Origin: a virus
Taxonomy: Duplodnaviria > Caudoviricetes
Length of the DNA: 55,674 bases
IMG/VR virus record: IMGVR_UViG_3300020165_002390
Span: 1 to 55,674 of that record
Direction: 5' to 3' (one strand)
Shown: positions 1-55,674 of the stretch, piece after piece
Numbering within the stretch: position 1 is the stretch's first letter
Layout: the number at the start of each line of letters is the position of its first letter
Notes under the pieces: model-generated
The model's database searches: none
Told to the model about the DNA's origin: nothing
Seen by the model: only the letters and a program-made list of their open reading frames with translations
Position numbers and translations under genes: made by a program

Positions 1-5
1 CCAAG

Positions 6-1352
6 GTGGCAATGACAGACACGGGACACGTGTCCGCAGGCAAACAGATCCAGTCACCAGCCAGTGCAGGTAGCAGGGGTCTGGCAAAAACAACACAATT
101 CACAAACGACAGGACACAGATGCAGATGGGCAACTCACCGATAGCAGAATCAATGGTAGAAATAAGAAACATACTAAACAGAATTGACGGTGTGAACGCA
201 CCAGTGCAGGAAGACGCAGGCGAGAAGATCGCCAACATGGCACAGAACATGACCAAAGACCAGTTCATGAGTCATGCTGATGAGTTAGGTTTAACTCCAG
301 AAGAGGCCGCGGAACACTACGAAAAGATGCAGGGCGGTGCACACGTGCAGGAAAAACAATCACCATACACCACAGACAAAGCAGGTGCGGGATACATAAT
401 GGCAAACAAAGACAAGATCATCCAACAACTGTACGCTGGTGGCGTACAAAGTGTGCTTGATCCCAAAGATGCGGTCAAGGCCATATCAGACCTAATACCT
501 GATGTCACTGAAAAAGAAATAATAGACATCATCAAAAAAGACAATGCTTTCGCTGGCGAATCAGCGGTGCAGGAAGACGAGAACGAACTGGTCAGACTCA
601 AGGAACTGTCAGGCATTGAAGAAGACGCAGGACTGACCGACGAACAGAAGAAAGGCCTTGATGCGATAGCAGAGAAATACAAAGACCGTGAGGGCGGAAA
701 TGGTGACATGTTGGCATACGGATATCTTGACGTATCCGACACTGGAATTCCAACAGACGGTTACGACAAAGAAGAAATGGAAGCCTACTCGAAAAAGATA
801 GGCGTAGACTGGAGAGAATGGGACGGTCAGCAGACAGAAGATTTTTTAGATCAAAGCGAAACTACAGGTGGCGTAACAGCATTTATGATCGATGACCTTA
901 TAAAAGTTCTAGGACCAAATTTCATGAACGATGAAAAACTACAATTCAGTGCTAAAGAATATCTAGATGACTCAGATAAATTATACCAACCAATGCCAGA
1001 GGGTGATGAATTTGACATAGAAGAGGACGAGGACTTCGAAGAAGTGCTTGGTCCACTGGGTTTCCCAGAAGACGAGACAGAACTTTTTGACGCAGAGTAC
1101 CAAGGCAGGAAAGTTCCACTGAACAAACCAATGCGTGGTGATGTCAAGAAATTCAAAGTGTACGTGAAAGATCCTAAAACAGGCAATGTTAAAAAAGTCA
1201 ACTTCGGACACGGTGGTACAAGTGCGAAGAGACCAACCATGAGGATCAGGAAATCAAATCCAAAAGCGAGAAAATCATTCAGGGCGAGACACAACTGTGC
1301 CAACCCAGGACCAAAGACCAAAGCGAGATATTGGTCTTGCAGGAAGTGGTAA
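6..1352 (+). CDS. Putative capsid-internal/virion polyprotein with an acidic body and a basic C-terminal 'RARHNC...ARYWSC' domain (may be 5'-truncated)
   Basis: 448-aa ORF with repeated V/I-Q/E-E-D motifs (PVQEDA, AVQEDE, GIEEDA) resembling prohead-protease sites, a NELVRLKELSGI motif and a Lys/Arg-rich Cys-containing C-terminal module. Confidence 0.6.
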   Translation: MAMTDTGHVSAGKQIQSPASAGSRGLAKTTQFTNDRTQMQMGNSPIAESMVEIRNILNRIDGVNAPVQEDAGEKIANMAQNMTKDQFMSHADELGLTPEEAAEHYEKMQGGAHVQEKQSPYTTDKAGAGYIMANKDKIIQQLYAGGVQSVLDPKDAVKAISDLIPDVTEKEIIDIIKKDNAFAGESAVQEDENELVRLKELSGIEEDAGLTDEQKKGLDAIAEKYKDREGGNGDMLAYGYLDVSDTGIPTDGYDKEEMEAYSKKIGVDWREWDGQQTEDFLDQSETTGGVTAFMIDDLIKVLGPNFMNDEKLQFSAKEYLDDSDKLYQPMPEGDEFDIEEDEDFEEVLGPLGFPEDETELFDAEYQGRKVPLNKPMRGDVKKFKVYVKDPKTGNVKKVNFGHGGTSAKRPTMRIRKSNPKARKSFRARHNCANPGPKTKARYWSCRKW

Positions 1353-1353
1353 C

Positions 1354-1539
1354 ATGCAGATCCGTGAAGTAGTAGGAATCACAGAAGAAGAATTCGAACA
1401 ACTAGCAGAGAAGAAAGACGCCTGCTATCATAAAGTGAAATCAAGATATAAAGTATGGCCATCGGCCTATGCCTCTGGTGCTCTAGTTCAGTGTCGTAAA
1501 AAAGGTGCGGCCAACTGGGGTAACAAGAGCAAAAAATGA
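1354..1539 (+). CDS. Small basic putative virion protein (KVWPSAYASGALVQCRK module)
   Basis: ATG at 1354, just after the upstream TAA, is preferred over the track start at 1297; N-terminus MQIREV, then a basic Cys-containing module. Confidence 0.65.
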   Translation: MQIREVVGITEEEFEQLAEKKDACYHKVKSRYKVWPSAYASGALVQCRKKGAANWGNKSKK

Positions 1540-3067: not shown

Positions 3068-3068
3068 T

Positions 3069-3670: not shown

Positions 3671-4339
3671 ATGAAAAAATGTCTTTTAATAGGTTGTAGT
3701 AATGGTATTCCATTGCATAAGCAGTTCTCCAAATTTTTTGGTTCCGAAGACGTTGAATGGATAAATCTATCCGCCAGCGGATTTGGCAATAGGTATATCA
3801 CCTCACGTTTATTTGAATATGTGGACGAAAGTGGAATACCAGATTACGTGTATCTACAATATTCCGGATTATCAAGAATTGACCTACCGTTTGACCCCAA
3901 AGTGACTATACCCGATTATGGAGGCCAGAGTAAAACCAACAGAAGAAATTGGGTTGCCAGTGGCGGTCGCAATGGATCTTGGCTTGCCTGTGATATGCTG
4001 AAAAAACTGTTTGCATACATGTATGATATCACATCAGAAAAGGGTCCTTACGATTTAAGTTTACATGAAATCTTTCGAGGTATAGAATTATGCAAGACCC
4101 TGAAAATACCTTACAACTGGAGCAGTTATTATGACTATACCAATCCCCCAAACAAAATGACAACTATTGATGGGTCGGTGTTCAAACTACCAGATTACAT
4201 AGACATGTCTGGTCATATTGGAGAATCTCCATTAAACGTTGCTTATGAGTTAGGAGACATTCCCGATGACGGGGTGCATTATACCAATAACACTGGTGAA
4301 CAATTTATTTTAAGAAATAAGGACAAATTTAATTTATGA
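3671..4339 (+). CDS. SGNH hydrolase-like protein
   Basis: LLIGCS (block I-like), NLSASGFGN (block II-like) and C-terminal DGVH (DxxH). Confidence 0.5.
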   Translation: MKKCLLIGCSNGIPLHKQFSKFFGSEDVEWINLSASGFGNRYITSRLFEYVDESGIPDYVYLQYSGLSRIDLPFDPKVTIPDYGGQSKTNRRNWVASGGRNGSWLACDMLKKLFAYMYDITSEKGPYDLSLHEIFRGIELCKTLKIPYNWSSYYDYTNPPNKMTTIDGSVFKLPDYIDMSGHIGESPLNVAYELGDIPDDGVHYTNNTGEQFILRNKDKFNL

Positions 4340-6999
4340 GTTACATAGATGCACTATTCAAAAAAGATGAGGACAAGATATACGTCGTAGAACGTGATCC
4401 CAAGAAGGGTCGAATATTCACAGAGTACGATGCCAGGTACGTGTTCTACTACGAGGACGCAAGGGGCAAACACAGATCAATGACGGGTGCACCATTACAG
4501 AGAGTGCAGTGTGCCACCAACAAGGAATTCATAAAAGAACAGAGGATAAGATCCAACAAGCAATTATACGAGAATGACATCAATCCTGTGTTCAGGTGTT
4601 TGGAAGAGAACTACTTGGGCAAGGAAACCCCAAAACTCAACGTGATGTTTTTCGATATTGAAGTTGACTTCGATCCAGATCGAGGTTATTCAACAACAGA
4701 TGATCCGTTCATGCCCATAACTGCCATAAGTTGTTACATGAGCTGGACGGACCAACTGGTCACATTTGCAGTACCTCCCAAGACCATCAGCATGACAGAC
4801 GCGAAAGAACTTACAAAGAGATTCGAGAACACCATGTTGTTCGAGAAGGAGAAGGACATGCTGGACGCATTCCTGGAACTAGTGCAGGACGCAGACATAC
4901 TGTCAGGTTGGAACTCAGAGGGATATGATATTCCATACACAGTTGGTAGGATACAAAAAGTATTAAGTTCAGATGACACAAGGCGTTTGTGTTTTTGGGG
5001 TGAAAAACCTAGAAAGAGAGTATTTGAAAAATATGGTCGAGAACAGTTAAGTTTTGATCTGGTAGGTCGTGTACACTTAGACTTGCTGGAACTATACAGG
5101 AAATACACATACGAAGAAAGACACAGTTTCAGACTGGACGCAATAGGCGAGCATGAATTGGACGAGAGAAAAACAGTATACGAGGGGTCACTGGACAACT
5201 TGTATAAAAATGACTTTGGACTTTTCATAGAATACAACAGACAGGATACTGCACTGTTGGCCAAGCTCGAGAAGAAACTGAAGTTCATAGAACTTGCCAA
5301 CGAGATAGCACACCAGAACACTGTGTTGCTACAGACCACAATGGGTGCAGTGGCGGTGACTGAACAGGCCATAGTGAACGAGACACACAGACGTGGTATG
5401 CAGGTACCAGGTAGGAAATACAAGAAGGACGGTGAGGAGAACCAACCGGCCGCAGGAGCCCACGTGGCAACCCCACAAAAAGGGATACACGACTGGATCG
5501 GTTCTGTTGACATCAACTCGCTCTATCCGAGTGTGATCCGTGCCTTGAACATGGGGCCTGAGACTATAGTAGGACAGATAAGGCCAGTGATAACATCAGC
5601 AGAGATCAACAGGGCCAAACACGCCAAGAAATCATTCGCGGCCGCATGGGACAGCCAGTTCGGTAGTTGGGAATACCAAGCAGTCATGAATCAAGAGAAA
5701 GGCACAGAGATCATAGTAGACTGGGAAGACAAGACCAGTGTGCGTATGAGTGCCGCTCAACTTTATGACATAGTGTTTGACGGCAACAACAAATGGATGC
5801 TGAGTGCCAATGGCACAATATTCACATACGAGTATGAAGCGATCATACCAGGACTGCTGAAACGTTGGTATGAGGAAAGACAAGAGATGCAGAGAAAAAT
5901 GCGTGACTGTGGAGACAACGAGATTGAACGGGAGTATTGGGACAAGAGGCAACTTGTTAAAAAGATTAACTTGAACAGTCTGTATGGTGCAATACTTAAT
6001 CCGGGTTGTAGGTTCTTTGACATGAGGATAGGACAATCGGTCACACTCACTGGTAGATGTATAACCAAACACATGGCCAGCAAGGTCAATGAAATAGTCG
6101 CAGGCAAGTATGACCACAAAGGTGAGAGTGTTGTGTATGGAGACACAGACTCTGTGTATTTCTCAGCATACAAAACATTACAAAAAGAGATCAACGAAGG
6201 CCTCATACCATGGACCAAAGATTCTGTGCTAGGACTATATGACAAGATAGCGGAAGAGGTCAACGGGTCATTCAAGTCATTCATGACTCGGGCATTCCAC
6301 ACACCAAGTACACGTGGAGAGGTCATTGCGGCGGGTAGAGAACTTGTTGCGTCGAAGGGACTGTTCATCACAAAGAAGAGATATGCGGTGCTGTACTATG
6401 ACAAGGAAGGCAAACGTGCAGACGTAGAAGGCAAGGATGGCAAGATGAAAGCGATGGGACTGGATCTTAAACGTTCTGACACACCTGTGTTCGTGCAGGA
6501 TTTCTTGAGTGATCTTCTTTACATGGTGCTACAGGGCAAGGAAGAAAAAGAAGTGTTAAAAAAAATAAGCGAGTTCAGGTCAGAATTCAAAGCAAGGCCA
6601 GGATGGGAGAAAGGTTCTCCAAAAAGAGCGAACAACATGACCAAGTACACAGCGGCAGAAGAAAAGGCCGGTAGGGCAAACATGCCAGGGCACGTCAGGG
6701 CCAGCATGAACTGGAACAGGTGTAGGGAGATGTATGGTGACAAATATTCCATGCCAATAACAGATGGTGCAAAAGTGATTGTGTGCAAACTTAAAAATAA
6801 TCCCATGGGCTATACCAGTATCGCATATCCTGTGGATGAGATGCGTATACCAGAGTGGTTCAAGGAACTGCCGTTTGACGGTGATGCCATGGAGGCCACA
6901 ATACTGGACCAGAAGATAGACAACCTCATAGGAGTGTTGGATTGGGACGTGCAAAGCACAGAGACCACAAACACATTCAATAAACTGTTTACTTTCTAA
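4336..6999 (+). CDS. Family B DNA polymerase (gp43-like) with 3'-5' exonuclease
   Basis: ExoI FDIEVD, ExoII GWNSEGYDIPY, ExoIII YNRQD; polymerase motifs DINSLYPS, KINLNSLYG, YGDTDS, KKRYA. Confidence 0.97.
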   Translation: MSYIDALFKKDEDKIYVVERDPKKGRIFTEYDARYVFYYEDARGKHRSMTGAPLQRVQCATNKEFIKEQRIRSNKQLYENDINPVFRCLEENYLGKETPKLNVMFFDIEVDFDPDRGYSTTDDPFMPITAISCYMSWTDQLVTFAVPPKTISMTDAKELTKRFENTMLFEKEKDMLDAFLELVQDADILSGWNSEGYDIPYTVGRIQKVLSSDDTRRLCFWGEKPRKRVFEKYGREQLSFDLVGRVHLDLLELYRKYTYEERHSFRLDAIGEHELDERKTVYEGSLDNLYKNDFGLFIEYNRQDTALLAKLEKKLKFIELANEIAHQNTVLLQTTMGAVAVTEQAIVNETHRRGMQVPGRKYKKDGEENQPAAGAHVATPQKGIHDWIGSVDINSLYPSVIRALNMGPETIVGQIRPVITSAEINRAKHAKKSFAAAWDSQFGSWEYQAVMNQEKGTEIIVDWEDKTSVRMSAAQLYDIVFDGNNKWMLSANGTIFTYEYEAIIPGLLKRWYEERQEMQRKMRDCGDNEIEREYWDKRQLVKKINLNSLYGAILNPGCRFFDMRIGQSVTLTGRCITKHMASKVNEIVAGKYDHKGESVVYGDTDSVYFSAYKTLQKEINEGLIPWTKDSVLGLYDKIAEEVNGSFKSFMTRAFHTPSTRGEVIAAGRELVASKGLFITKKRYAVLYYDKEGKRADVEGKDGKMKAMGLDLKRSDTPVFVQDFLSDLLYMVLQGKEEKEVLKKISEFRSEFKARPGWEKGSPKRANNMTKYTAAEEKAGRANMPGHVRASMNWNRCREMYGDKYSMPITDGAKVIVCKLKNNPMGYTSIAYPVDEMRIPEWFKELPFDGDAMEATILDQKIDNLIGVLDWDVQSTETTNTFNKLFTF

Positions 7000-7835: not shown

Positions 7836-8573
7836 ATGATAGACATCTTAAAAGACATCGTTAAACATACGCATGGACTGGGATTCTTGGATCTTGTTAA
7901 AATTACTGGCGACGACAAAGAGACTGCGATCGACAGTATGGCAGAAGACAGATCTGTGATCCTGCAAGGGTCTTTCCACAAACCACAAACGGAGATGACG
8001 GGTACGTTCGGTATGCCACAGATGGGCAAACTGGACATACACTTGAAGTGTCCGGAATACAAGGAGAAGGCAAACATAACTGTGTTGTCCGGTGAGAGAA
8101 ACGGTGCAACCATTCCAACAGGAATCCATTTCGAGAACGAAAAGGGTGACTTCAAGAATGACTACAGATTCATGAATGCCGAGATCATCAATGAGAAACT
8201 TAAGACCGTGAAGTTCAAAGGTGTTAAGTGGGACGTTGAGATCGAACCAAGTGTGGCAAGTGTGCAAAGATTCAACTTCCAGGCAACAGCAAACACAGAA
8301 CACAACTCATTCGTTGTGAGAACCGAGGATGGAAACTTGATTTTCACTTTTGGTGATCAGGCATCGCATGGTGGTGAATTCGTGTTCGCGACTGACGTTG
8401 AGGGAACACTCAACAAAGGTTGGAGTTGGCCGGTAGGACAGGTGCTACAAATACTTAAACTGTCTGATTCAGCGAAAGTTACATTACACTTCTCTAACGA
8501 GGGTGCTATGCAGGTTTCGGTTGATTCAGGACTGGGCAAGTATCAATACATCATACCAGCACAGGCGCAATAA
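7836..8573 (+). CDS. Putative DNA polymerase sliding clamp (gp45/PCNA-like)
   Basis: 245 aa, beta-rich two-domain pattern ending in YQYIIPA; close to the DNA polymerase. Confidence 0.65.
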   Translation: MIDILKDIVKHTHGLGFLDLVKITGDDKETAIDSMAEDRSVILQGSFHKPQTEMTGTFGMPQMGKLDIHLKCPEYKEKANITVLSGERNGATIPTGIHFENEKGDFKNDYRFMNAEIINEKLKTVKFKGVKWDVEIEPSVASVQRFNFQATANTEHNSFVVRTEDGNLIFTFGDQASHGGEFVFATDVEGTLNKGWSWPVGQVLQILKLSDSAKVTLHFSNEGAMQVSVDSGLGKYQYIIPAQAQ

Positions 8574-10794: not shown

Positions 10795-10969
10795 AGAGGC
10801 TCTAGCATATAGAGAAGGTGTAAGAAGTTTCAATGCTTGGATGAAAGATAATAAAAAACTCGAGAAGATGGGATTGTATGGCACAGACTACTACGTGAGA
10901 AGGGTCGAAGAACTAGAAGCAAAAGTAAAAAGATTAGAAGCAAGACTAAAAACAAAGGGGAAAAAATGA
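10775..10969 (+). CDS. Small hypothetical protein (coiled coil)
   Basis: GAGGAG RBS; overlaps both neighbours. Confidence 0.55.
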   Translation: MPRKLSKEALAYREGVRSFNAWMKDNKKLEKMGLYGTDYYVRRVEELEAKVKRLEARLKTKGKK

Positions 10970-12472: not shown

Positions 12473-12551
12473 TGGGCAAAGTGTCACATTGTTGCATAGG
12501 ATCAACAGGATTGCCGAATATCTATTCACAAGAACAAAGAGGCACAAATAA
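12321..12551 (+). CDS. Small hypothetical protein
   Basis: GGAG upstream; TAATG coupling to the SET gene. Confidence 0.45.
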   Translation: MTTSSKEKPHGWLEAKQSTGAVYGLGVEESKRGKAIRRIAQPLTDKHWIGSGQSVTLLHRINRIAEYLFTRTKRHK

Positions 12552-41665: not shown

Positions 41666-41666
41666 A

Positions 41667-45673: not shown

Positions 45674-46227
45674 CTTATATTGAACCATCCTTTCGCTCTG
45701 TTTTTTAACACTTCCCATGTTTCCAATTCAATGTCATATTCAAAGTTCTGTGTTGTTAGATGTTTTCCCACCAACTTGGCTCCGTTCTTCAGATGGAACT
45801 TCTCTGCCATTTCTGTTAGAGGTGAGAGTGTGACCAATCTGTTCAAGTGATTGGATTGCTTGATCATCTTGTACACTTCGTTGACCATGTGCTTTCCGCC
45901 ACCTTTCTTCTTGGCCCACACCGTGTAGGCTATTGCCGTTGAACCTTGTACTCCTGCCCTGTTTACTGCCTGCATGGCGGCGTCCCGACTCATGGTATCC
46001 ATCTCCTCCACGCTCTTTGGTATTCCGTGTGTGAAGGCGAAACACATAACAGCCGCTATGTCACCTTCCTCGTCTTTGATCCCAAATATCTTCCTGCCAT
46101 GGGATTGTCTAAACTCTAGGCTTAATTCTGGTCGTACCGGATCTTCCGTGACATCTATGTACGGCAACTCTATCAGTTCGAACTTGGCCTTCTTTTCCAG
46201 TGCCTTTTTAATTTTTGTTAATACCAT
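45670..46227 (-). CDS. Hypothetical protein, GNAT-like fold possible
   Basis: AYTVWAKKKGGGK, LVTLSP and FHLKNGA resemble GNAT motifs A/B. Confidence 0.45.
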   Translation of the reverse strand: MVLTKIKKALEKKAKFELIELPYIDVTEDPVRPELSLEFRQSHGRKIFGIKDEEGDIAAVMCFAFTHGIPKSVEEMDTMSRDAAMQAVNRAGVQGSTAIAYTVWAKKKGGGKHMVNEVYKMIKQSNHLNRLVTLSPLTEMAEKFHLKNGAKLVGKHLTTQNFEYDIELETWEVLKNRAKGWFNIR

Positions 46228-46228
46228 T

Positions 46229-46333
46229 TTACTTGTATATGAATGGGTCTTTCTTTTTCAGCTCTTTGAGTCTTTTCCTGTACTTCAGTTCTTGTTTGAT
46301 CTTGTCGATCATTTTACGTATCCATGTTAACAT
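46229..46333 (-). CDS. 34-aa basic peptide ending KKKDPFIYK, not in the ORF track
   Basis: MLTWIRKMIDKIKQELKYRKRLKELKKKDPFIYK; AGGAG RBS; TAATG coupling to the upstream gene. Confidence 0.65.
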   Translation of the reverse strand: MLTWIRKMIDKIKQELKYRKRLKELKKKDPFIYK

Positions 46334-47127
46334 TATTTGTCTCCTATCAGTTTGTTAAAAGTTGGTAACATTAATTGTACAGCATCCTGGTGTGATTCGT
46401 CAAGTGGATGTGTGGTGGCTCGGGCGTAGTCATTCAGCAGTGCCCATTGGTTGAAACCCATCATGCGTTCTCCAAAAGTGAACCATTTGGTAATGTCTAT
46501 CTCTGAGTGCAGTGCAGTCATCAGATCATCCTTGTCCTTGTGGTGTCGCATGTGATCGTAAAACAGCGTGTTGTCCGCTAGTGTGAAGAAAAATGGTATT
46601 TTCCTCTTCTCCAGTATGTTCTGCAACCATGTGATCGATTTCCAACTGAGATATATCTCATGATACTCGTTGGCGGCATTTTTATAAAGACTGTCTGCGA
46701 AGTCTCGCACTCCTATCTTTGCAGTTTCCTCGGATCTCTTTTGCCAGATCTCTTGCTGTATGTCTGAGTCCGACAATTTAGACATGGCTTCTTCATGCCC
46801 TTTCCTGGTGTCCCAAGGCGATATCGAAACCCAACGACTGCCATCTAACTTCTTGTATTCTGGCATGGCCCAGTCATACCTTGAGGGGAAACTCCACATC
46901 ACTGCGACGGCACCAATGTACTCGTTTGAATTTATTGCCATGAACACACGGCGTGCTATGGCTTGGTTGCCCAATCCACCAGAGGCTGTGCAGACGTATT
47001 CCATTCCTGCGTTCTCGCAAAGGCGGTGTGCCCATGTCTTCGCTGATGGCGTGTTGCCATTGACATCGTCACTGAGTTCGTTCCCGAATGTGAAACTGCA
47101 ACCACCTGCTATGAATTTCTTAGTCAT
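46333..47127 (-). CDS. SGNH hydrolase-like protein
   Basis: AGGCSFTFG, GGLGNQAI, VMWSFPSR, HPLDESH. Confidence 0.55.
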   Translation of the reverse strand: MTKKFIAGGCSFTFGNELSDDVNGNTPSAKTWAHRLCENAGMEYVCTASGGLGNQAIARRVFMAINSNEYIGAVAVMWSFPSRYDWAMPEYKKLDGSRWVSISPWDTRKGHEEAMSKLSDSDIQQEIWQKRSEETAKIGVRDFADSLYKNAANEYHEIYLSWKSITWLQNILEKRKIPFFFTLADNTLFYDHMRHHKDKDDLMTALHSEIDITKWFTFGERMMGFNQWALLNDYARATTHPLDESHQDAVQLMLPTFNKLIGDK

Positions 47128-48301
47128 ATATTTTTAGTATGTTATTTAAAAGTGGAAACACATCTCCGAAATTTTCTTTCCTATACTGATCCGTTTGTAG
47201 TATTCTTCTTTTTCTTTCTGCTCTTATTTCAGGAGAATCCCTGTCAGCGGCATTCATGAATCTTATGCTGGGTTGATAGTCTGTAAGCATGTGGTATCTA
47301 TCTACTACTATGTCTTTGACTTGTTGTGGCAGTGTTTGAATGTTGAACACATCTGGGTCAAAGCAAGTGTTCACATAGAAAAACTTGGGTTGAAACTGTG
47401 CCACCCACAATGCCATCTTGGCCCAGTTGAACACGTTGAATATATTCACTGTCGAACATATTTGAAAATCCATGTTAGGAGTTTTCATTTCTTTAAACTT
47501 GACAAGATTTTGATTTACTTCTCTCCACTTGGCAGGATGTCTTTGATACTCAAAAGGTTCTCCCACATCATCAATACTAAATGCCACTTCCACATGTTTG
47601 AAGCAACTCCATAGGTCAAATATTTCCTGTGGTGGCAACTGTGTGCCATTTGTGTTGTAATGTATATCTATGTCCTTGGCATATCCCTTCTCAACACAGT
47701 GCATCAGTATCTTGAAGTGATCCTTGATCATAAACGGTTCACCGCCTGTGAATTCAAAGTACTCCACATATTTCAGATCCTCCTGCAACTCCTCGAAGAA
47801 CTGTGGGTTACGTTTTGGCCATCCTCCCTCCTTGAGTTGTTTCCTGGCCACAGGATTATCTCCACCCTTGGCCGTCTCATAATCTATTTCTTCCTGAGCC
47901 CATTTTGAGGAACTCCACGATCCACATATCCTACATTTAAGATTACACACGTTGCCCAACTTAAAGTCAATAAACTTCAGCGTTGGCTCGCTGTTAGGTG
48001 TCCAGTTTTCTAAACTGCTACGCATTTTGTAAATTGAATTCTGTCTTTTACTTGTTTTGCCGGCATCTTCTTCTTGCCAACAACTTTGACATCCTTTAGG
48101 ACGCTTACCTTCCCTGAACTTTTTCCTTAGAAGTTCCATGTACTCTGTTTGCTGTATGGATTTTAAACTTTGTTCGTACACTTTGACTCCAGGAATACTA
48201 CCCTTGTACAAACAGCAAGGAGACGCACCGCCATTTACATCAACTTCTAAATGGTTCCACGGTAATGGGCATATGTTTGAATCTATATACTTGTCCACCA
48301 C
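47120..48301 (-). CDS. Radical SAM protein with N-terminal twitch-like domain
   Basis: CPLPW...PCC...CQSC, then CNLKCRIC, FTGGEP, YNTNG, FSIDD. Confidence 0.9.
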   Translation of the reverse strand: MVDKYIDSNICPLPWNHLEVDVNGGASPCCLYKGSIPGVKVYEQSLKSIQQTEYMELLRKKFREGKRPKGCQSCWQEEDAGKTSKRQNSIYKMRSSLENWTPNSEPTLKFIDFKLGNVCNLKCRICGSWSSSKWAQEEIDYETAKGGDNPVARKQLKEGGWPKRNPQFFEELQEDLKYVEYFEFTGGEPFMIKDHFKILMHCVEKGYAKDIDIHYNTNGTQLPPQEIFDLWSCFKHVEVAFSIDDVGEPFEYQRHPAKWREVNQNLVKFKEMKTPNMDFQICSTVNIFNVFNWAKMALWVAQFQPKFFYVNTCFDPDVFNIQTLPQQVKDIVVDRYHMLTDYQPSIRFMNAADRDSPEIRAERKRRILQTDQYRKENFGDVFPLLNNILKIYD

Positions 48302-49635
48302 TCTAACGCCTTTTTGTTTTTTGCTAATATTTTCTTGATGTCTGTGCCACGTATGCGATCTAATCTTTCAATTTCTGCCTTGCCGTCTTTCTGCCCTTTT
48401 TTGTAAATTTCCTCATCATACACCAGCTCATTGTTTCTCTTCTGTTTCTGCATTTCATCTAACTGTGCAAAGAAATTGTTAAGATTTTTATTTTTATATT
48501 TGATGGTTTTTTCTCTTGCGTCATCGATCATCTCACTCATTATATCATATGGCATGAACAGTGGTGCCATTGCATTGTCCTCGGAGAAGTTGAAAACCTG
48601 TTTGGTCAACAGTTCTATTCCTAGTTCGTTGCTGAGTAAAACCATATTTTCAAGATCGAACAATCCTGGCATGGTTATAGTGAGGTCCAGTTGTATACGC
48701 TGGTAAGGTCCCTGGACGTATTTCAACCCATACCTCATGTTTTCAAGCCATTCGGAATATTTCAACCCTGTCCTGATGTACTCTCCAGTTTCACCTGTCC
48801 CGTCGATAGAAGCACAAATCTGAAATTGTTGGTAGTGTTTCAATATGTCTTCGAATAAATTTTTACCATAAAAGTTGATACGACTCATGTTTGAGTTGTA
48901 CCTGGCCAAGACATTTTCAGCATATCCTAGTTCCTTGATCCTCTCCATTGCCGTCCAATGTATCTTCCACATCAAAGGTTCTCCACCGCACCAGTATATC
49001 TCTGTTATTCTTTTTTCCTCCACTGCCGCCGTAAACTCCTTAACCACTTGCTGGTCATGGAACTTTTCTAATTTTTCCTTTATGTCCTTCCTGCCCCATA
49101 TCCTGTGATCTTTGTACACGTACTCCGGATCGATTTCTCCCAGGCCGTACTTCCTGTTCTCCGCTTCCCATGTGCTACTCAACATGTCACCGCACATCCT
49201 ACAACTGAAATTGCAAAGGTTTGTAAAACGATAGTCAAAACTTTCTACTTTCATTTTCGTTTCACCTGTTTCGTCCGTGCTGGCAAATGCTTCGTCAACT
49301 TTGTGCTTGTACAGATGGTTGAAGTGCTGTCTGTACACCTGCTCGTTAAGCAATTTGTCGTTGCACACGGCACACTGTGGTATCTCCTCACCGGCCAGTA
49401 ATTTTTGTCTCACAGTCTTCATGTATTCTGAATTCCAATGCTGGTCGAGGGTTGTAAGGTTTATTTTGTCATTGTGTCCTTTAGGATCAATTGTGTCTAT
49501 GTACTGTTTGAAGTTTGCCGATGACTCACGTGAACTGCAACACAGTCTTCTTTCCATCTGTGGTGATAGGTATGTGTGCGTCCACGGCGCCATGCAGAAC
49601 GTTTTGTTGCCTTCTGACGGTTTAATCTTCTTCAT
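48283..49635 (-). CDS. Radical SAM protein with N-terminal twitch-like domain
   Basis: CMAPW...LCC...CAVC, then CNFSCRMC, GGEP, ASIDG. Confidence 0.9.
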   Translation of the reverse strand: MKKIKPSEGNKTFCMAPWTHTYLSPQMERRLCCSSRESSANFKQYIDTIDPKGHNDKINLTTLDQHWNSEYMKTVRQKLLAGEEIPQCAVCNDKLLNEQVYRQHFNHLYKHKVDEAFASTDETGETKMKVESFDYRFTNLCNFSCRMCGDMLSSTWEAENRKYGLGEIDPEYVYKDHRIWGRKDIKEKLEKFHDQQVVKEFTAAVEEKRITEIYWCGGEPLMWKIHWTAMERIKELGYAENVLARYNSNMSRINFYGKNLFEDILKHYQQFQICASIDGTGETGEYIRTGLKYSEWLENMRYGLKYVQGPYQRIQLDLTITMPGLFDLENMVLLSNELGIELLTKQVFNFSEDNAMAPLFMPYDIMSEMIDDAREKTIKYKNKNLNNFFAQLDEMQKQKRNNELVYDEEIYKKGQKDGKAEIERLDRIRGTDIKKILAKNKKALEWWTSI

Positions 49636-50905
49636 ACAATTCCTTCAACTCGGGAAAAGTTTCAAGCATGTTTTCGTCACGGAGGTCGTCTAGCCTCTTC
49701 ATCCACGATTTGAATTGGTCTATGTGCTCGTGGTTGTCTCTACGCATCATGTAGTCTATGCCTGACTGGAAGCCTTTGGTCGCCCTTGTCAATGGATCTA
49801 GAGGTGCTAGCCATTCTATGTGCTTTTCGATCTTGTCCTTTACTTTTTGTTTGTATGCCAATGGCGCTAAATCTATCCTCTGTCCAAACGGAGACTGTAA
49901 TAAGTTGAAGTTGAAGTCTTGTGGTTTTAAAAATCCCATGTCAACCCAATTCCTATGGAAGTCTGTGATGTGCCAGGCATTTATAAGTCCTACTGTGGAA
50001 CTGATGTAGAAGTCAACTTCGGGACACACCTCCAACATCCTTTTCCTGTTGGCCACCACATCGTCCCATACCGTTCCTTTCCTCATTAGTTCAGCACGTT
50101 TACCTTCTGCGTCAAGGCTGGCACCTATAGAGACTGTGTCAAATTTTTTCCATAATTCTAGTACATCCATGTCCTTGAATTTTGTCTTAGTGAAATTGGT
50201 GTTGTAGATCAGTCTCACGTGATACATTTTTCTTTTGTCCAGCTCTTTCAATATCCTGTAGTGTTCCTCCATTATCAAAGGTTCTCCGCCTGCGAAATAG
50301 AACTGCTCAACATGATCAAACTGTTCTAACATCTGATCCCATATGTCATTGGAACTTCTTCCGACACGTAATATCTTGGCATGTTTTGGTGGTTCGCCTG
50401 CTAACTTCTTATGGTCCTCATACCAATTTGAACTGAACCATGTGCCGCAACTCCTACAGGCCAAATTACATAGATTGCTGAATCGTATATCCCAGTACTT
50501 GATCACAAAATCTGCACTGCCGTCTTCTTTGGTGTTATCAATCATTCCTATGTTGTGTCCAAAGTGTTTGTTCGAACTCATACGTAAACTGAAAAATCCC
50601 GACTTTTCTTGATCATAACATTTGGTGCAGTTTTTACTGGATTTGTTTGACAACATGTTTTGTCTCAACTGTTTCATGTCCTTGCCATTGAACACAGTTT
50701 CCATGGAATCCTTGTTTAAGTTTCCCACAGGATAATCATCTATTGCGAAGCAACATGGATAGGCCCTGCCGTCTGGAAAAGCGTGGAGATGTAGCCATGG
50801 CATCATACAAAATGTGTCACTGTCGATCAACAACTCACGCTGTCTCTCGGTCATGTCTTTAATCTTTAACTTCTCGGGCTCCTTGGCCCCGTAATCATAT
50901 GCCAC
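49622..50905 (-). CDS. Radical SAM protein with N-terminal twitch-like domain
   Basis: CMMPW...PCC...CTKC, then CNLACRSC, FAGGEP, ASLDA. Confidence 0.9.
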   Translation of the reverse strand: MAYDYGAKEPEKLKIKDMTERQRELLIDSDTFCMMPWLHLHAFPDGRAYPCCFAIDDYPVGNLNKDSMETVFNGKDMKQLRQNMLSNKSSKNCTKCYDQEKSGFFSLRMSSNKHFGHNIGMIDNTKEDGSADFVIKYWDIRFSNLCNLACRSCGTWFSSNWYEDHKKLAGEPPKHAKILRVGRSSNDIWDQMLEQFDHVEQFYFAGGEPLIMEEHYRILKELDKRKMYHVRLIYNTNFTKTKFKDMDVLELWKKFDTVSIGASLDAEGKRAELMRKGTVWDDVVANRKRMLEVCPEVDFYISSTVGLINAWHITDFHRNWVDMGFLKPQDFNFNLLQSPFGQRIDLAPLAYKQKVKDKIEKHIEWLAPLDPLTRATKGFQSGIDYMMRRDNHEHIDQFKSWMKRLDDLRDENMLETFPELKELYEED

Positions 50906-52238
50906 GGTACCATTCTCCTATTATTGGGAAAGTCTTTTCAAATTCTTTTCCTGATCGTTTGTCATATTGACTGTAGAATGCCTTGAAGTCTTTTTGTAGT
51001 TTACTCTGTTCGGCCGCACCTGCATGTGGTGTTTTGACAACATCCAAGTAGTCGATAAGTCTTTGTGTTTGATTAATTTCCATGTGTTCTAAATGTTTTT
51101 CGTTAGTATTTAAAAACTTTACCAAGTCCAGTTTAAATTTATTTCTTAAATCATCCGGTAGCACAAGCGGTGATTGGAAACTCGGAAACCTCAATATGTT
51201 CAGTGTAAAGTTAACTTCTGGTCCGTACACCTTGCCTGCACTCTTGAACCAAACCATTTTCTCTAAAAACTCAGGTAATGACTCTAGACATAGTGCGTTA
51301 ATTGTACACATATTGTGGAGGGCACGTGGAACCTTATCCACCATCATGTGCAAGAAGTTGGAATGCCAATCTCCATAAACTAGTCCGTCTCTGATGTATT
51401 CTGCTTGTCCAAATGTTGCTTCACAACTAGTATACAATTCGAAGTTATCAAACTTCTTTAATTTTGTTTTGAATCTATCAATGATGCTCTGCTTTGCACC
51501 TAGGTTAGAGTTTATTGCGAGGGTCATGTTGGGATTCATTTTATCTCCCTGTGTTTCTATCCAATCTAGTAGTCTCCATAAATTAGGTGACATCATAGGT
51601 TCTCCGCCTGTTATCCTCAGTTCATCTAGGCTCTTGTGTAGGTCTGTTTCCCACCATTTGTAGAATGCTTCCACGTATGGATTGGTCTCATCTTTCTTGT
51701 ACGGCTCTGCACTTTCATGGCTGTGTGTGAAATGATTCCTGCCATCTGTTTTCATATCGGTGTATGGTCCTTGCCTCTTGATGTTGTTTGCCCAAGTGGA
51801 ACTGAATGCAGGATTACAATACGTACAAGCAAAGTTACAGGTTCTGTCAAATGCTATTTCTAGTGTTTTCAAGTCTACGTCTTCCTTGTGATCTAGGTTA
51901 TATGCTGTGTCTAGATCTTCATCTGTGAATATTTGTGATTTATACACCCTATCACTTATGTTGTCTCTGTTGATGTCTTCAATCTTCCAACAGTACTCGC
52001 ATCCTGCAGGCCTCTCTCCGCACTGCATCTGCCTACGCTGTTCTTTTTTCTCAGGTGTGTTGTGTAGCAGTTTCGGATTTGATTGCACAGCGATTGGATC
52101 AATCTTGTGCGGAAGCGGATGGTGACAACTTGTGGTCATCCCACTGCCCAGCCATATAGTCGCATTGTACCATTTGGCCCCACAGAAACTTGCAGATTTG
52201 GTGTCTAGTATTTTTTTCTTGTATTCTAAATCATTCAT
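50895..52238 (-). CDS. Radical SAM protein with N-terminal twitch-like domain (SCHH subtype)
   Basis: CGAKW...SCHH...CEYCW, then CNFACTYC, TGGEP; start probably ATG 52238. Confidence 0.9.
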   Translation of the reverse strand: MNDLEYKKKILDTKSASFCGAKWYNATIWLGSGMTTSCHHPLPHKIDPIAVQSNPKLLHNTPEKKEQRRQMQCGERPAGCEYCWKIEDINRDNISDRVYKSQIFTDEDLDTAYNLDHKEDVDLKTLEIAFDRTCNFACTYCNPAFSSTWANNIKRQGPYTDMKTDGRNHFTHSHESAEPYKKDETNPYVEAFYKWWETDLHKSLDELRITGGEPMMSPNLWRLLDWIETQGDKMNPNMTLAINSNLGAKQSIIDRFKTKLKKFDNFELYTSCEATFGQAEYIRDGLVYGDWHSNFLHMMVDKVPRALHNMCTINALCLESLPEFLEKMVWFKSAGKVYGPEVNFTLNILRFPSFQSPLVLPDDLRNKFKLDLVKFLNTNEKHLEHMEINQTQRLIDYLDVVKTPHAGAAEQSKLQKDFKAFYSQYDKRSGKEFEKTFPIIGEWYRGI

Positions 52239-53605
52239 ACGTTTCTGCACTCCTCCCAGAACTCTTCCATCTCAGGAAAGGTGTTCAAGAACCTTGTGAG
52301 ACGTCTGCGGTCGTGTTCGTTGAAGAAAGCGTAAAAGTTTTTTTTATTTTGCGTACTTGCGTCAGCGTTTTCGCGCCAGTATGCGAGATTACGTTGCATC
52401 TTCTGGATCTCGAAATCGTTGAACTTGCTGTACCCTCTGTCGTTCCCACAATGCTTCTGCATGTATTCTATGTTTTCCTCATGTATTATTTGGTAGGATT
52501 CCGGGAGCAGTGTGATCTGTTGCCATGTGGGTTGCCTCAGCAGTGGCACGTCAAACCATATACGTTGGTATGTGGTGCTGTACTTGGCACGCAGTTCCAG
52601 TATCTTTTCAAGTAATTGGTCCATGCTGGTTATACTGAGATTGTTGTATGTGCATATGAACGTTATGGAATTCCTCCCTGGTATACGCTCCAGGAACTCC
52701 TCCACGTTGTCCATCATGTAGTTGAAATCCAATCCGTTCCTGATGTACTCCGCACGTTTGCCCCATGCATCCACGCTCACGAACTGCATCATGTGTTCCA
52801 CCTTGTCCTGCATACATATCTCCTGTGCCATGTTGAAGTATTTCTCCTTCAGTTTCTTGTCCGGGGGACACATGTTGCTGGTCACGTTCAGGTGTAGGTC
52901 CTGTTTGGGGTTGTCAATTATGTACTGGAACACCTTGTATGTGTTCACATCCATCATGGGTTCCCCTCCCGTCATACGGAAGTGTTTTAGATTCTTGTAC
53001 AGCGTTGGCCACCATCTCCAGAACGCTTCAACGTATGGATTATCTTCACGATTTGTTAAAGGCCTGTTCTCTCCTTGGAAGTGTTCCGGCATGTTGTGGG
53101 GTGGTGACGTTGGATATTCTCCATAACGATCGACTTCCTTGCCCCACGTGGTGGAGAACTGTGGTGAGCAGTAACTACACTTGAAATTGCAGGCGTTGTT
53201 GAAGTTGACCTCAACGTACCTCGGAGTCCACTTGTCGTCCAGTGGTTTTTTCATGATGTCATCGAAGTCCTGCATGGCCCATGGTTCGCCCGACCTGTAG
53301 TGCCTGTCACTCATCTCTCCAGTCTTCTCTATGTTCCAGCAGTAGGAACACCCTTCTGGCTTCTTGCCCTCCAGCATCTCCTTCCTCTGTTGCAGTTTAT
53401 CAGTGGTGTTGTGCAGGCTCGCGGGGTTGTAGTTGAGCTTGTCTGGGCTGATCTTGTGCAGTGGAGGATGATAGCAACTGTTTGTCTTGCCCGTGGGCAG
53501 GTGCAGTGAGGTCTGGTTCCACTTGGCCAGGCACATGGTGGGAGACACGGTCTCTAATTTCTCTCTGGCCTTGTCTGCGTCTGACTTGTAATCACTGGTA
53601 CTCAC
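52235..53605 (-). CDS. Radical SAM protein with N-terminal twitch-like domain (SCYH subtype)
   Basis: CLAKW...SCYH...CSYCW, then CNFKCSYC, TGGEP, VSVD; GTG start. Confidence 0.9.
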   Translation of the reverse strand: MSTSDYKSDADKAREKLETVSPTMCLAKWNQTSLHLPTGKTNSCYHPPLHKISPDKLNYNPASLHNTTDKLQQRKEMLEGKKPEGCSYCWNIEKTGEMSDRHYRSGEPWAMQDFDDIMKKPLDDKWTPRYVEVNFNNACNFKCSYCSPQFSTTWGKEVDRYGEYPTSPPHNMPEHFQGENRPLTNREDNPYVEAFWRWWPTLYKNLKHFRMTGGEPMMDVNTYKVFQYIIDNPKQDLHLNVTSNMCPPDKKLKEKYFNMAQEICMQDKVEHMMQFVSVDAWGKRAEYIRNGLDFNYMMDNVEEFLERIPGRNSITFICTYNNLSITSMDQLLEKILELRAKYSTTYQRIWFDVPLLRQPTWQQITLLPESYQIIHEENIEYMQKHCGNDRGYSKFNDFEIQKMQRNLAYWRENADASTQNKKNFYAFFNEHDRRRLTRFLNTFPEMEEFWEECRNV

Positions 53606-54494
53606 GGTCTTGCACTCCTTTGTTCCTGTGCTCCGGCAACGTGAACTTGAAGAACTTGCTGTCCTCTGGTGTGAAGTCTGCTATTGGTATGTCCAACCTC
53701 TGTTTGATGCTCTCACCATACATCCGTATCTCGTCGTCCATGTTGTTGGCGTCTATTTTGTTGAAGAACATTTCTCTCATGCCTCCTATGTCACTGATGT
53801 CACTTTGTTCATTGGAGTTGCCCAGCACAGTGTGATACAGTCCCATCCTGGCGCCCAGCATGGCGTATTTGCCATTCTCTACATCGGCCCCCACTGTCAT
53901 CCAGGTGCTCAGCACACGCAGGTTCTCAGGCCACACATTCTTGTTGAAGTCGTTGGCCGGTATGGGTTTGCCTTTGTCCAATCCCATTTTCACGCCCTCC
54001 CTGTATCCGGCAGTGAATGCCTGGTCCTTTTCCGCATTGATCACTGTGGTCGAATAACAGTTGTGTAGATTTTCATGTGGTACACCCCAACAGAAGTCTA
54101 ATCTGTTCTCCTCGGTGTCTGCGTTTTCGTGTGTACGCATGTTGAGGCAAGTCTGTTTTGGCCATCCTACCAACCCGCCGTTTCCGTACACCAGTCCATT
54201 CACATTGTTTTTAGCACGCCACCTGTGGACAGCGTCAGGATTGGTCTTGCTCCAATCCAAAGTCTCTAGTAGGAATTTCTCATTTATGATGTTGTCTCCG
54301 TCCACACTGATAAAGAAATCAGTTTCCGCTAGTTCCGCCGCGGCCTTGTGTGCAGAATCGAATCCAACTACCCCATCGACACGCTTGGCCCATGGCACCT
54401 TGTTTTTTAGATCTGCCCAATTCAGTTCCTTGTTGGGTTCTTTGAAACTTATGTAAACGAAATCTAGATCGCTTACTCGTACTCGAGCAACCAT
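53592..54494 (-). CDS. GT-A-like glycosyltransferase
   Basis: FVYISFKEP, GVVGFDSAHKAAA, VDGD (DxD), NGLVYGNGG; start probably ATG 54494. Confidence 0.65.
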   Translation of the reverse strand: MVARVRVSDLDFVYISFKEPNKELNWADLKNKVPWAKRVDGVVGFDSAHKAAAELAETDFFISVDGDNIINEKFLLETLDWSKTNPDAVHRWRAKNNVNGLVYGNGGLVGWPKQTCLNMRTHENADTEENRLDFCWGVPHENLHNCYSTTVINAEKDQAFTAGYREGVKMGLDKGKPIPANDFNKNVWPENLRVLSTWMTVGADVENGKYAMLGARMGLYHTVLGNSNEQSDISDIGGMREMFFNKIDANNMDDEIRMYGESIKQRLDIPIADFTPEDSKFFKFTLPEHRNKGVQDREYQ

Positions 54495-54796
54495 GCTTTT
54501 CCTCCATCTACGATCCCAATTGGCCAATGTATGTCCCCGTCCAAGAACACGTAACCTTTGTGTGGTGTTGATATCAACTGAGAATACTGTGTCTTTGCCT
54601 TGGGTTTTATTTGATCTTTTTCAACTATGTCTGTTTTGCCATCCACGTTGGACAGCGTGTAGTATTGCTCGCCTCTCCTCATTATTTCCAATTTCTTGTC
54701 AAGAGGCACTTCTATCTGTTTGCCGTCTATGTTTACAAAGTGTCTCTTGGGAGGTCGAACCTTGAAATCCTTTAGTGCTTTAAAAATCTCTGACAT
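54473..54796 (-). CDS. Hypothetical protein
   Basis: AAGGAG RBS before ATG 54796. Confidence 0.55.
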   Translation of the reverse strand: MSEIFKALKDFKVRPPKRHFVNIDGKQIEVPLDKKLEIMRRGEQYYTLSNVDGKTDIVEKDQIKPKAKTQYSQLISTPHKGYVFLDGDIHWPIGIVDGGKAWLLEYE

Positions 54797-55574
54797 TAAT
54801 CTCCTTGTCGAAGTAGTGCCATGGCCTGGACACACGACGTTCTCCTAGGTAATATGCATCTCCTGACTTGTTGGGGAACAGGAAGTTGTTTTGATCTTTG
54901 ACCCAGTCTAGATTATTTACACCAGGCTTATGATGAAGGAACTTGAACCATTCGTAGTCTATGAGATGTTGATTGGTTGGATCTAAAATCCTATATGCCA
55001 GGGCGAACACCACATCCGTGCTAGGATAAGTGTCGTGGCAATTGATCAACATGTGCTCCTTGACTTCATTCCACTTGTAAGTTATCTGTTCTGCCAATTC
55101 AAAAAATTTCTTAGATCTTTCTGATTTACGGAAGTACATCAGTCCATTGTATATGTTGGGTAGATGATTTCTTTTGAACAAGTTCCTGTACGGTGTCTCC
55201 TTGACCACTTGATCCTTGTAGTTCCTGCAATCAACACTGAACACCAGATCGTGTTGCCATAGGTGGTACCACCACCAGTCCGTGTTGGCCGTCCACAGCA
55301 TGTCCGCTTCTAGTTTGATCGTGTACTCGAAAGGAGTCCACCAACATGCCTTGTGCTCGTTGGCCCATTTTATTTTGTGTTCCGAGGCATCATCCTCCTC
55401 CAACACCTGTACCACGTCTACCGCTTCGTGTTCAAATTTACTTTTCTCATCAGTGATCACGCACACACTGTTCTCACGATTCCATTTCTTTATGGACTTG
55501 GCCAATCTTATGGACAGTTCGACGTAGTCTGTTGTGTCATTGTTCTGGGCGAACCACAGGAATCCCTTAGACAT
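54780..55574 (-). CDS. Nucleotide-diphospho-sugar transferase (GT8-like)
   Basis: KGFLWFAQN, TPFEYTIKLEAD (D/ExD), YNGLMYF, TDVVFALA. Confidence 0.65.
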   Translation of the reverse strand: MSKGFLWFAQNNDTTDYVELSIRLAKSIKKWNRENSVCVITDEKSKFEHEAVDVVQVLEEDDASEHKIKWANEHKACWWTPFEYTIKLEADMLWTANTDWWWYHLWQHDLVFSVDCRNYKDQVVKETPYRNLFKRNHLPNIYNGLMYFRKSERSKKFFELAEQITYKWNEVKEHMLINCHDTYPSTDVVFALAYRILDPTNQHLIDYEWFKFLHHKPGVNNLDWVKDQNNFLFPNKSGDAYYLGERRVSRPWHYFDKEINVRDF

Positions 55575-55674
55575 CGGCTAACTCCTTGTTTAGCACATGC
55601 ACGTCTTGTCCTACGGTGTGCATGATCTTGCCGTCGCCCTGCCAGGCCAAACCTTCGTCACTGATCGACAGTAC
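55567..55674 (-). CDS. 3' end of a truncated CDS (...QDVHVLNKELADV*), possibly another GT-like gene
   Basis: Open frame from the window edge to TAA at 55567-55569, overlapping the next start. Confidence 0.5.
   Translation of the reverse strand, partial: VLSISDEGLAWQGDGKIMHTVGQDVHVLNKELADV

Follow-up and report, generated by a model that had tools for sequence, protein, structure and literature searches.

The 55,674-base viral contig of IMG/VR record IMGVR_UViG_3300020165_002390 (GC content 42.2%) was analyzed over its entire length and is referred to here as the window. It carries the genes for a family-B DNA polymerase (PolB; positions 4336 to 6999, plus strand; Pfam DNA_pol_B, E 7e-37; phrog_262, E 2.6e-194), a candidate DpdA-type transglycosylase and several steps of a 7-deazaguanine pathway, and it is devoid of several short restriction-type words, some of them everywhere and others outside one particular two-base flank. 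The missing words, the flank that exempts some of them and the modification genes that may account for the exemption are the subject of this report. Completeness of the window was estimated at 16% of a genome and contigs of its relatives (37-89 kb) were rated 6-25% complete, which suggests a genome size of roughly 350 kb. The contig covers about a sixth of the genome of an abundant, cosmopolitan, uncultured marine jumbo phage. PolB, which served as the lineage marker, has its closest cultured relatives in jumbo phages, namely Sinorhizobium phage Phosso (50.5%), Agrobacterium phage Atu_ph07 (46.5%) and the Rak2-like coliphages (~42%), and a scan of viral contigs found PolB relatives encoded on 445 stretches. 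DNA near-identical to the window (at least half of the sampled words) was present in 17 public sequencing runs, nearly all labelled as marine metagenomes, and the stretch was found in 20 runs in all, from 13 studies. No tRNA genes were found in the window, megablast of 6 kb of it against phage records gave no match, and neither did a PolB search of prokaryotic genome contigs.

The first-pass annotation of the window had proposed window-wide avoidance of GCWGC, and exact counting bears this out. GCAGC and GCTGC each occur 0 times in the 55,674 b. Expected numbers of GCWGC are 64.0, 61.7 and 47.3 under order-0, order-1 and maximal-order Markov models, respectively; the annotation had estimated approximately 50 copies. 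Under a null in which synonymous codons are permuted within each gene, 68.9±6.2 copies are expected with a minimum of 48 in 500 shuffles, giving an observed-to-expected ratio (O/E) of 0 rather than one near 1. The purge acts through synonymous choice and is visible in all three frames. Among 71 alanine codons preceding another alanine, 42 are GCG, 29 are GCC and none are GCA or GCT, so that the switch described in the annotation holds for 71 of 71 pairs, and the five runs that it quoted (at 2984, 5638, 19129, 22678 and 34095) are all present. Outside such pairs GCA is the commonest alanine codon (539 of 1,004). A second frame is represented by serine and cysteine codons that follow a codon ending in GC, where AGC or TGC is used in 0 of 25 cases. 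GCSGC, with 81 copies, is 1.84-fold enriched and constitutes the sink of the purge, and the C-to-T deamination product of the avoided word, GTAGC/GCTAC, is not enriched (O/E 0.61). The best explanation of the absence of GCWGC is selection against cutting at that word. To this extent the annotation's reading of a defence directed at GCWGC is supported in part; the nuclease may be the host's or the phage's own, and a TseI/ApeKI-like type is a possibility. A BbvI-type enzyme specific for GCAGC would leave the same footprint as TseI or ApeKI.

Two further palindromes are depleted under the same null (500 shuffles), with 15 copies of AGCT against 127.7 expected (O/E 0.12) and nine copies of GCGC against 56.2 (O/E 0.16). 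Their avoidance had been described as less strong than that of GCWGC, which is incorrect, as it is absolute but conditional on the flank. Writing H for any base other than G, an H-G flank is a 5' G directly before the core that is itself preceded by a non-G. Without such a flank, AGCT occurs 0 times against 90.0±8.0 expected (minimum 67) and GCGC 0 times against 28.5±4.9 (minimum 14); with it, the counts are 15 against 36.5 and nine against 27.2. GTGCAC behaves likewise (0 against 5.5 without the flank, five against 5.4 with it). All 15 AGCT survivors (4741, 5264, 17081, 27026, 27260, 29067, 32358, 33358, 34365, 37658, 44663, 46260, 48425, 50241 and 53436) and all nine GCGC survivors (8565, 19548, 32843, 40169, 45336, 49587, 49864, 52373 and 53851) are H-G-flanked on at least one strand, and can be read as GAGCT in 15/15 and GGCGC in 9/9 on at least one strand; the five GTGCAC survivors (337, 2007, 4487, 10509 and 15353) are all H-G-flanked as well. 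The effect is graded by the number of G flanks (300 shuffles). AGCT is observed 0 times against 79.0 with no G flank, 12 against 43.2 with one and three against 4.3 with both, and the corresponding values for GCGC are 0 against 23.1, five against 25.6 and four against 7.0, which amounts to an O/E of 0 with none, 0.2-0.3 with one and 0.6-0.7 with both. GCWGC is absent throughout, both without an H-G flank (0 against 45.4) and with one (0 against 23.9), and whether it has no G flank (0 against 40.7), one (0 against 26.1) or both (0 against 2.6).

The flank rule was examined further in a lineage set of 459,788 b made up of the window, five relatives' contigs and four contigs of a distant branch. 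Here the H-G flank is found on at least one strand of 107/107 AGCT and 82/82 GCGC sites, and none of them has a GG flank alone. At position -2, G is found in only two of the 113 unique contexts of AGCT, where the background is 26.6% (P 9e-13), and in three of the 81 of GCGC, against a background of 14.7% (P 0.0025); these few GG cases all carry an H-G flank on the other strand, hence the full compliance. GTGCAC survivors are H-G-flanked in 39/39 and 8/8 cases in the two branches (47/47 lineage-wide). When 101 palindromic cores were scanned without bias, only AGCT, GCGC and GTGCAC reached 100% (P 6e-55, 6e-29 and 1e-19, respectively), with a wide gap to all others, and the control flanks H-A, H-T and notC-C gave zero cores at 100% in the same scan. 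Survivors occur in three reading frames and in intergenic DNA. Since most survivor contexts (10 bases, core, 10 bases) are distinct (96/107 for AGCT, 70/82 for GCGC and 41/46 for GTGCAC), the rule does not come from one inherited site counted repeatedly.

Avoidance is a property of the lineage. Eighty of the 445 PolB stretches, with protein identities of 94-100%, were analyzed, and these loci (547,844 b, overlapping one region) contain 0 GCWGC, one unflanked GCGC and 55 unflanked AGCT, the last all confined to 10 loci. The whole contigs of five relatives (271,789 b), which are 83-86% identical to the window across the 38-50% that aligns, hold one GCWGC and no unflanked AGCT or GCGC; the sole GCWGC is an alanine-alanine pair in a gene absent from the other contigs examined. 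The distant branch consists of contigs in the metagenome-assembled genome (MAG) G006. Its contig C13 aligns collinearly with the window at ~70-72% identity, and C22, C19 and C12 were assigned to the branch by shorter matches together with the word pattern, an argument with some circularity in the case of C19 and C12. These 132,325 b contain 0 GCWGC and 0 AGCT of any kind, and 24 of 24 GCGC sites are flanked. A 16-kb contig of phage-like GC in the same MAG has ordinary word counts. AGCT thus occurs in three states over 82 PolB loci, being flank-conditional in 71, relaxed in 10 and fully absent in the G006 branch, unlike GCWGC and unflanked GCGC, which are at or near zero across the lineage. On the PolB tree (a FastTree phylogeny from a gap-free pre-aligned set with 78 of 82 rows, leaving out L016, L057, L068 and G006 C13 because of their length), the ten relaxed loci occupy scattered positions, and the unflanked AGCT sites in them fall within conserved core genes, PolB among them. 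The pressures on restriction-type palindromes are several, independent and partly lineage-specific, as expected of a phage that faces many restriction-modification systems.

Other words vary by branch. ACGCGT is absent from the window whatever its flank (0 against 3.0; 9 of 300 shuffles reach a count this low), as is GCATGC (0 against 4.7; 0 of 300 shuffles). The window's branch (327 kb) holds 0 ACGCGT (4-25 expected by model), two GGGCCC, three GCTAGC and 13 GCATGC (48-65 expected), and the G006 branch holds 0 GCATGC and one ACATGT (19-60 expected). Survivors of GCTAGC are H-G-flanked in 5/5 cases. We take AGCT, GCGC, GTGCAC and ACGCGT to be the specificities of AluI, HhaI, ApaLI and MluI, respectively. 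Depletion of CTGCAG (3 against 13.6) is a by-product, because G followed by CTGCAG contains GCTGC, and the 8/8 flanked CGGCCG sites of the G006 branch were set aside as a by-product of the GCG-GCC alanine-alanine choice. GATC, GGCC and CCGG are common, as the annotation had remarked (290, 156 and 77 copies). As a separate observation, GATC is over-represented relative to codon-preserving shuffles (290 against 195.5±10.0, z +9.4), as is CATG (306 against 235.1), and TATA is depleted (210 against 339.0).

Several genes in the window point to synthesis of a 7-deazaguanine. GTP cyclohydrolase I (FolE) is encoded at 15274-15993 on the plus strand (Pfam 2.6e-38; NCBIfam FolE 1.1e-40, under the equivalog cut-off), and a QueE-like radical SAM protein at 21472-22377 (+; phrog_2076, 1.6e-53). 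The latter is 42-45% identical to the proteins of the KVP40/nt-1/VH7D vibriophages and also matches 15 Campylobacter and seven Cellulophaga phage records; deazaguanine DNA modification in these phage groups is discussed by Cui, Hutinet et al. (10.1101/2023.04.13.536721). A homologue of DpdL, a QueD-like protein predicted to decarboxylate 7-carboxy-7-deazaguanine, lies at 10966-11406 (+) and was detected by phmmer with CGPG_00067 of Cellulophaga phage phiST (E 3e-11; 36% identity). It retains the signature LxxxHRHxF defined for DpdL in the same work (10.1101/2023.04.13.536721) in the form L-GYV-HRH-I-F, and this signature is missing from the true QueD sequences in the DpdL alignment. QueD/PTPS itself was seen only on a relative's contig (L120, 17554-18009). 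A YhhQ-type transporter of the queuosine precursors preQ0/preQ1 is encoded at 18922-19524 (+; NCBIfam NF008406, 9.9e-57; TIGR00697, 113.6 bits against a cut-off of 50.95). Between DpdL and FolE lie a glycosyltransferase-like open reading frame (ORF) at 12890-14059 (+; Pfam Glycos_transf_1, E 2.9e-5, 24.1 bits against a cut-off of 26.4), which from its position may have a role in DNA modification, and an NAD-dependent sugar epimerase/dehydratase at 14016-15047 (+; Pfam Epimerase, 1.7e-50). No QueC family match was obtained in the 53 larger ORFs of the window or in 100 cluster representatives of its relatives, the genome being incomplete, and the same two sets gave no match to a DNA methyltransferase family.

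The plus-strand ORF at 8573-10021 encodes a 482-amino-acid protein that we regard, from a model made with AlphaFold 2 (AF2) and from structure comparison, as a candidate transglycosylase of the DpdA type with the fold of the tRNA-guanine transglycosylases (TGT). The model is confident (predicted local distance difference test score, pLDDT, 92.6; predicted template modelling score 0.92). The top 50 Foldseek matches are all tRNA-guanine transglycosylases (E ~1.5e-8), and VIA-align superposes the model on TGT structures with Z scores of 18-19 and a root-mean-square deviation of ~4.6 Å over ~300 residues. The protein belongs to a family of 949 representative clusters in which D109, S110, G112, H257 and D290 are invariant and the DSGGYQ and FDS blocks are conserved. 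Of the matches of the family profile in the PDB, 35 of 35 are tRNA-guanine transglycosylases, at weak E values of 0.7-0.97, with its DSGGyQ aligned on their DSGGYQ; the aligned aspartates are presumably the TGT catalytic pair. Profile comparison by hhalign gave E 2.7e-4 over 232 columns with bacterial TGT and E 1.4e-4 (probability 52%) over 113 columns with DpdA3 of phiST. All six contigs of relatives that extend across this region encode the protein (84-97% amino acid identity, both motifs kept), and its gene context suggests that it acts on DNA rather than on tRNA. Standard family models largely miss it. Pfam TGT touches 2 of 59 family members, and a six-frame search with this model (E<=10) gave no match in the window or its relatives. 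The same six-frame search gave no match on the record of Vibrio phage nt-1, which is treated among the deazaguanine-modified phages (10.1101/2023.04.13.536721), and the test is therefore insensitive, so that family models can miss a phage DpdA entirely. A search for DUF6610 (DpdA4) was negative, phmmer with DpdA3 of phiST (CGPG_00065) gave a best E of 0.18, and tblastn with CGPG_00065 matched 11 phage records only, none from Campylobacter. Two other ORFs that were considered for this role were rejected, namely 20041-21066, which is amidinotransferase-like, and 18052-18840, which has just five homologue clusters.

The surroundings of these genes yielded several side observations. A 245-amino-acid ORF (7836-8573, +) directly follows the polymerase and methyltransferase-like genes; it has at least 7,875 homologue clusters with no family assigned, is conserved at 97-99% in the lineage and 86% in the G006 branch, and was modelled by AF2 as mostly strands at a pLDDT of 38.8. 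As a guess, it might be a sliding clamp. A small SET-domain ORF (12551-12871, +; Pfam SET, 9.6e-11) stands between a redoxin gene and the glycosyltransferase gene. GMP reductase (NF003470, 450 bits, above cut-off), a purine phosphoribosyltransferase and the YhhQ-type and TctA transporters are encoded at 16238-19524 and 22456-23892 (+) and together suggest salvage of purines or deazapurines by the phage; one relative encodes a xanthine/uracil permease. Between the cupin and QueE-like genes, the amidinotransferase-fold ORF at 20041-21066 (+) has 3,689 metagenomic homologues, and its C-terminal 64 amino acids resemble SxtG and arginine:glycine amidinotransferase (E 1e-7), so that a role in tailoring the deazapurine is possible. 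A minus-strand block at 38394-55574 looks like a sugar- or metabolite-tailoring pathway, with a DegT-type aminotransferase, a short-chain dehydrogenase/reductase-type (SDR) epimerase, a carbamoyltransferase, a thioredoxin-reductase-like flavoprotein and six radical SAM proteins (41667-42764 and 47120-53605), SPASM and twitch types included.

Further observations concern the relatives and the possible host. The relative's contig G001 (L084/L085) has a 3,879-amino-acid open frame at 77257-88896 (-) that reaches the contig end. The G006 contigs C13, C12 and C19 (L113-L115, L120-L123) are phage-like yet carry genes of an unusual, cellular kind, for cytochrome b, TolC- and HlyD-like proteins, KdsA, a CHASE2-cyclase, SufE, NifU and rubrerythrin; they show zero GCWGC and zero AGCT, and their assignment to the phage comes partly from that pattern. 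Two SAR11-like MAGs, one titled Rickettsiales and the other Pelagibacteraceae, have contigs of the phage group among their binned sequences, which is either a host lead or mis-binning. The 387-kb bacterial contig C17 (GC 29%) of G006 has ordinary word counts in its first 60 kb and so lends no support to that bacterium as the host. Matches to the GMP reductase in MAGs comprised L097, a phage relative, and L098-L101, whose word counts are ordinary.

We infer that the phage avoids several sequence-specific nucleases and that a 7-deazaguanine-type modification at H-G-R (non-G, G, purine) shields the sites adjacent to it, and we assign this reading a probability of roughly 0.6. Strong selection would come from several sequence-specific DNA-cutting enzymes, most likely the restriction systems of the hosts, and the phage would answer in two ways. 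Silent recoding would strip target words from the genome, with GCWGC, ACGCGT and GCATGC gone or nearly so in any surroundings. In addition, the phage would modify its own DNA by means of FolE, the QueE-like protein and DpdL (with QueD on a relative's contig), and the putative DpdA-type enzyme would exchange guanines in finished DNA at the G of H-G-R. A modified G, or the C paired with it, that abuts AGCT, GCGC or GTGCAC would block cutting of that strand, such that sites flanked on one or both strands would be tolerated and the remainder purged. A GG flank would fail because the modified G would lie one base too far off. Words whose nucleases ignore the neighbouring base, such as GCWGC and ACGCGT, would need a complete purge. 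The annotation's proposal that GCWGC is left unprotected by the phage's own base modification agrees with these data, as modification genes are encoded and the flank that rescues AGCT, GCGC and GTGCAC fails for GCWGC.

The form of the exemption, H-G followed by A (AGCT) or by G (GCGC, GTGCAC and GCTAGC), fits a DpdA-type enzyme that writes at H-G-R. This context would take in 40.8% of all G. It accounts for the grading by the number of flanked strands, for the failure of GG and for one rule governing three unrelated words, and it also accounts for the contrast between branches, as the contexts used by DpdA vary among related phages. The deazaguanine pathway as such was ruled out as the cause of the purge by a control, the cultured DpdL phage phiST, in which GCWGC (68) and AGCT (356) are ordinary in 79 kb; the purge therefore reflects the enemies of this lineage. 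A more specific and tentative proposal, to which we give somewhat less than even odds, is that the H-G rule is the shadow of an undescribed hypermodification, a 7-deazaguanine derivative, possibly sugar-bearing in view of the glycosyltransferase-like and epimerase genes that separate DpdL from FolE, placed at H-G-R by a new 482-amino-acid DpdA family.

A number of observations weigh against modification at H-G-R as the shield. Sites with the H-G flank are still depleted (AGCT 15 against 36.5; GCGC nine against 27.2). The flank rescues neither GCWGC (0 against 23.9 expected) nor ACGCGT, and GCATGC obeys the rule in just 9 of 13 survivors. AGCT is unrescued in the G006 branch though the DpdA-type protein there is 84% identical. 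A bare 7-deazaguanine is small and has no bulky group, and shielding from outside the site would need further decoration. Systems of the phiST type reportedly replace all G and not one context (10.1101/2023.04.13.536721). The DpdA of phage CAjan leaves GGT unmodified (PMC7544227, PMC10484667), whereas H-G-GTGCAC is tolerated here. Finally, the base sequence fits a modified G or the paired C (context Y-C-D) alike.

This last point leads to the alternative that shielding is due to a modified cytosine on the opposite strand, in the context Y-C-D. The DNA methyltransferase responsible would recognize a short motif and could be an orphan host enzyme or the product of a phage gene beyond the fragments seen. 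Since H-G-R reads as Y-C-D on the complementary strand, all flank statistics fit this alternative equally well. A C-C-D enzyme acting at GCGC or GTGCAC would methylate the final C within the site, and the G006 branch, in which only cores ending in C (GCGC and GTGCAC) are rescued and AGCT is not, is what such an enzyme would produce. A CCD-specific methyltransferase exists in the chlorella virus enzyme M.CviPII. We nevertheless consider this alternative unlikely, as the 53 window ORFs and the relatives' 100 representatives contain no DNA methyltransferase family and a complete deazaguanine insertion set is present; moreover, the rescue of AGCT in the window's lineage would require T-C-D as well, and methylation of the last C of GCWGC gives no rescue. 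Little different in probability, and if anything slightly less likely, is an origin of the cutting within the phage itself. If the phage's own nucleases destroyed host DNA, as in chlorella viruses, absence of the sites would be self-protection, with the flank acting as it would under modification at H-G-R. Near-zero GCWGC and unflanked GCGC in every member examined (0 and 1 in the 80 PolB loci of 548 kb, 1 and 0 in 10 contigs) would fit such a lineage-constant factor, and the window is only ~16% of the genome. Host defences of patchy distribution would fit better with the repeated relaxation of AGCT avoidance in scattered branches and with the variation of the 6-bp words by branch. In ~460 kb, only SNase, UvdE and an exoribonuclease were recognized, and neither a nuclease of restriction type nor a methyltransferase to accompany it, but this is a weak point, as type II nucleases often escape Pfam.

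The remaining alternatives dispense with one element or another of the proposed arrangement. The avoided words could be targets of modification-dependent defences, where some hosts methylate GCWGC, AGCT or GCGC and others cut the methylated form. N4-methylcytosine in all three words is described in uncultured aquatic prokaryotes, and enzymes of the BisI family are described as cutting methylated GCNGC. Such defences alone leave the H-G exemption unexplained, however, and GCSGC, which BisI-type enzymes would also take, is 1.84-fold enriched rather than avoided, so that we regard this account as improbable. Still more doubtful is the idea that no modification is involved and that the nucleases refuse H-G-preceded sites through extended degenerate recognition. 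The grading of O/E by G flanks could mirror half-site recognition by dimeric enzymes, yet one exemption is common to three different cores, and the enzymes would need to cut G-G-AGCT while sparing H-G-AGCT, for which a single reader of H-G-R is far simpler. Mutational bias, codon usage, chance or assembly artefact are refuted by the counts and can be given almost no weight. Short words do vary with composition in general, but the observed 0 compares with a minimum of 48 in 500 codon-preserving shuffles, the pattern recurs in contigs of many independent assemblies, there is no signature of deamination, and the bacterial contig and the contig of similar GC in MAG G006 show ordinary counts.

Modification at H-G-R together with avoidance of nuclease sites would mean that a single genome links restriction avoidance with DNA modification, two strategies usually treated apart. 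The exceptions supply a precise prediction of the modification context (H-G-R) of an uncultured phage, one that is open to testing. If the reading is true, both the modification motif and the restriction repertoire of an unknown host could be read from the surviving forbidden words and their flanks. The same logic could extend to metagenomic viral contigs in general, where it may serve to infer motifs, to sort phages by the defences they meet and to narrow down hosts by their methylomes. The analysis also draws attention to a TGT-fold family of considerable size (949 representative clusters), overlooked by standard family models, which, if the assignment is true, would be a new DpdA family of 482 amino acids in a giant phage that is among the commonest in the ocean.

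Enzymes directed at GCWGC exist, both of the TseI/ApeKI type and as M.AbaBS3I (PMC3643589, PMC8557920), and methylation of GCWGC occurs in uncultured aquatic bacteria (PMC6329791). The methylomes described assign GCWGC to Chloroflexi, AGCT to Thaumarchaeota and GCGC to a Planctomycete, with no single taxon among them having all three. In the open-access literature searched for flank-conditional or modification-linked avoidance, no flank exemption is described, and two papers on marine jumbo phages (PMC9123017 and PMC12619734, the latter on another lineage) yielded nothing pertinent. Avoidance of restriction sites in virulent dsDNA phages was surveyed by Rusinov et al. in 2018 (PMC6286503). The lineage of the window resembles the classical pattern in that palindromes are under-represented, removal is synonymous, and several words are involved that differ between related lineages (PMC6286503). 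It differs in that three of its words are conditional, with an absolute two-base H-G exemption, and a text search of that survey found no mention of a flank (PMC6286503). The link between site and host enzyme that defines classical avoidance is, for this phage, a presumed one.

Among the modification systems, the DpdA of CAjan inserts preQ0, once the DNA has been replicated, at the G of GA and GGC and that of phage iggy at GA only, and sites that contain these contexts resist restriction enzymes (PMC7544227, PMC10484667). The proposed system would share with them an enzyme of the TGT family and a context of two to three bases that opens with the modified G followed by a purine. CAjan and iggy make preQ0 with QueC, whereas the phage of the window has DpdL and QueC was not found in the sets searched. 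The 482-amino-acid proteins, unlike the CAjan and iggy enzymes, form a separate family that is missed by Pfam TGT, and their proposed context needs a preceding non-G and includes GGT. The shielded G would also lie outside the restriction site. Another parallel is the DpdL/DpdA3 7-deazaguanine (dDG) system of Cellulophaga phage phiST. Its DpdA3 has 259 amino acids and is reported to replace all G (10.1101/2023.04.13.536721), whereas the window's enzyme has 482 and is only remotely alike, and phiST is without word avoidance, unlike the window. Both lineages nevertheless combine FolE, QueD, QueE and DpdL with a distant TGT homologue encoded beside the polymerase gene, and both do so without a recognized QueC (10.1101/2023.04.13.536721).

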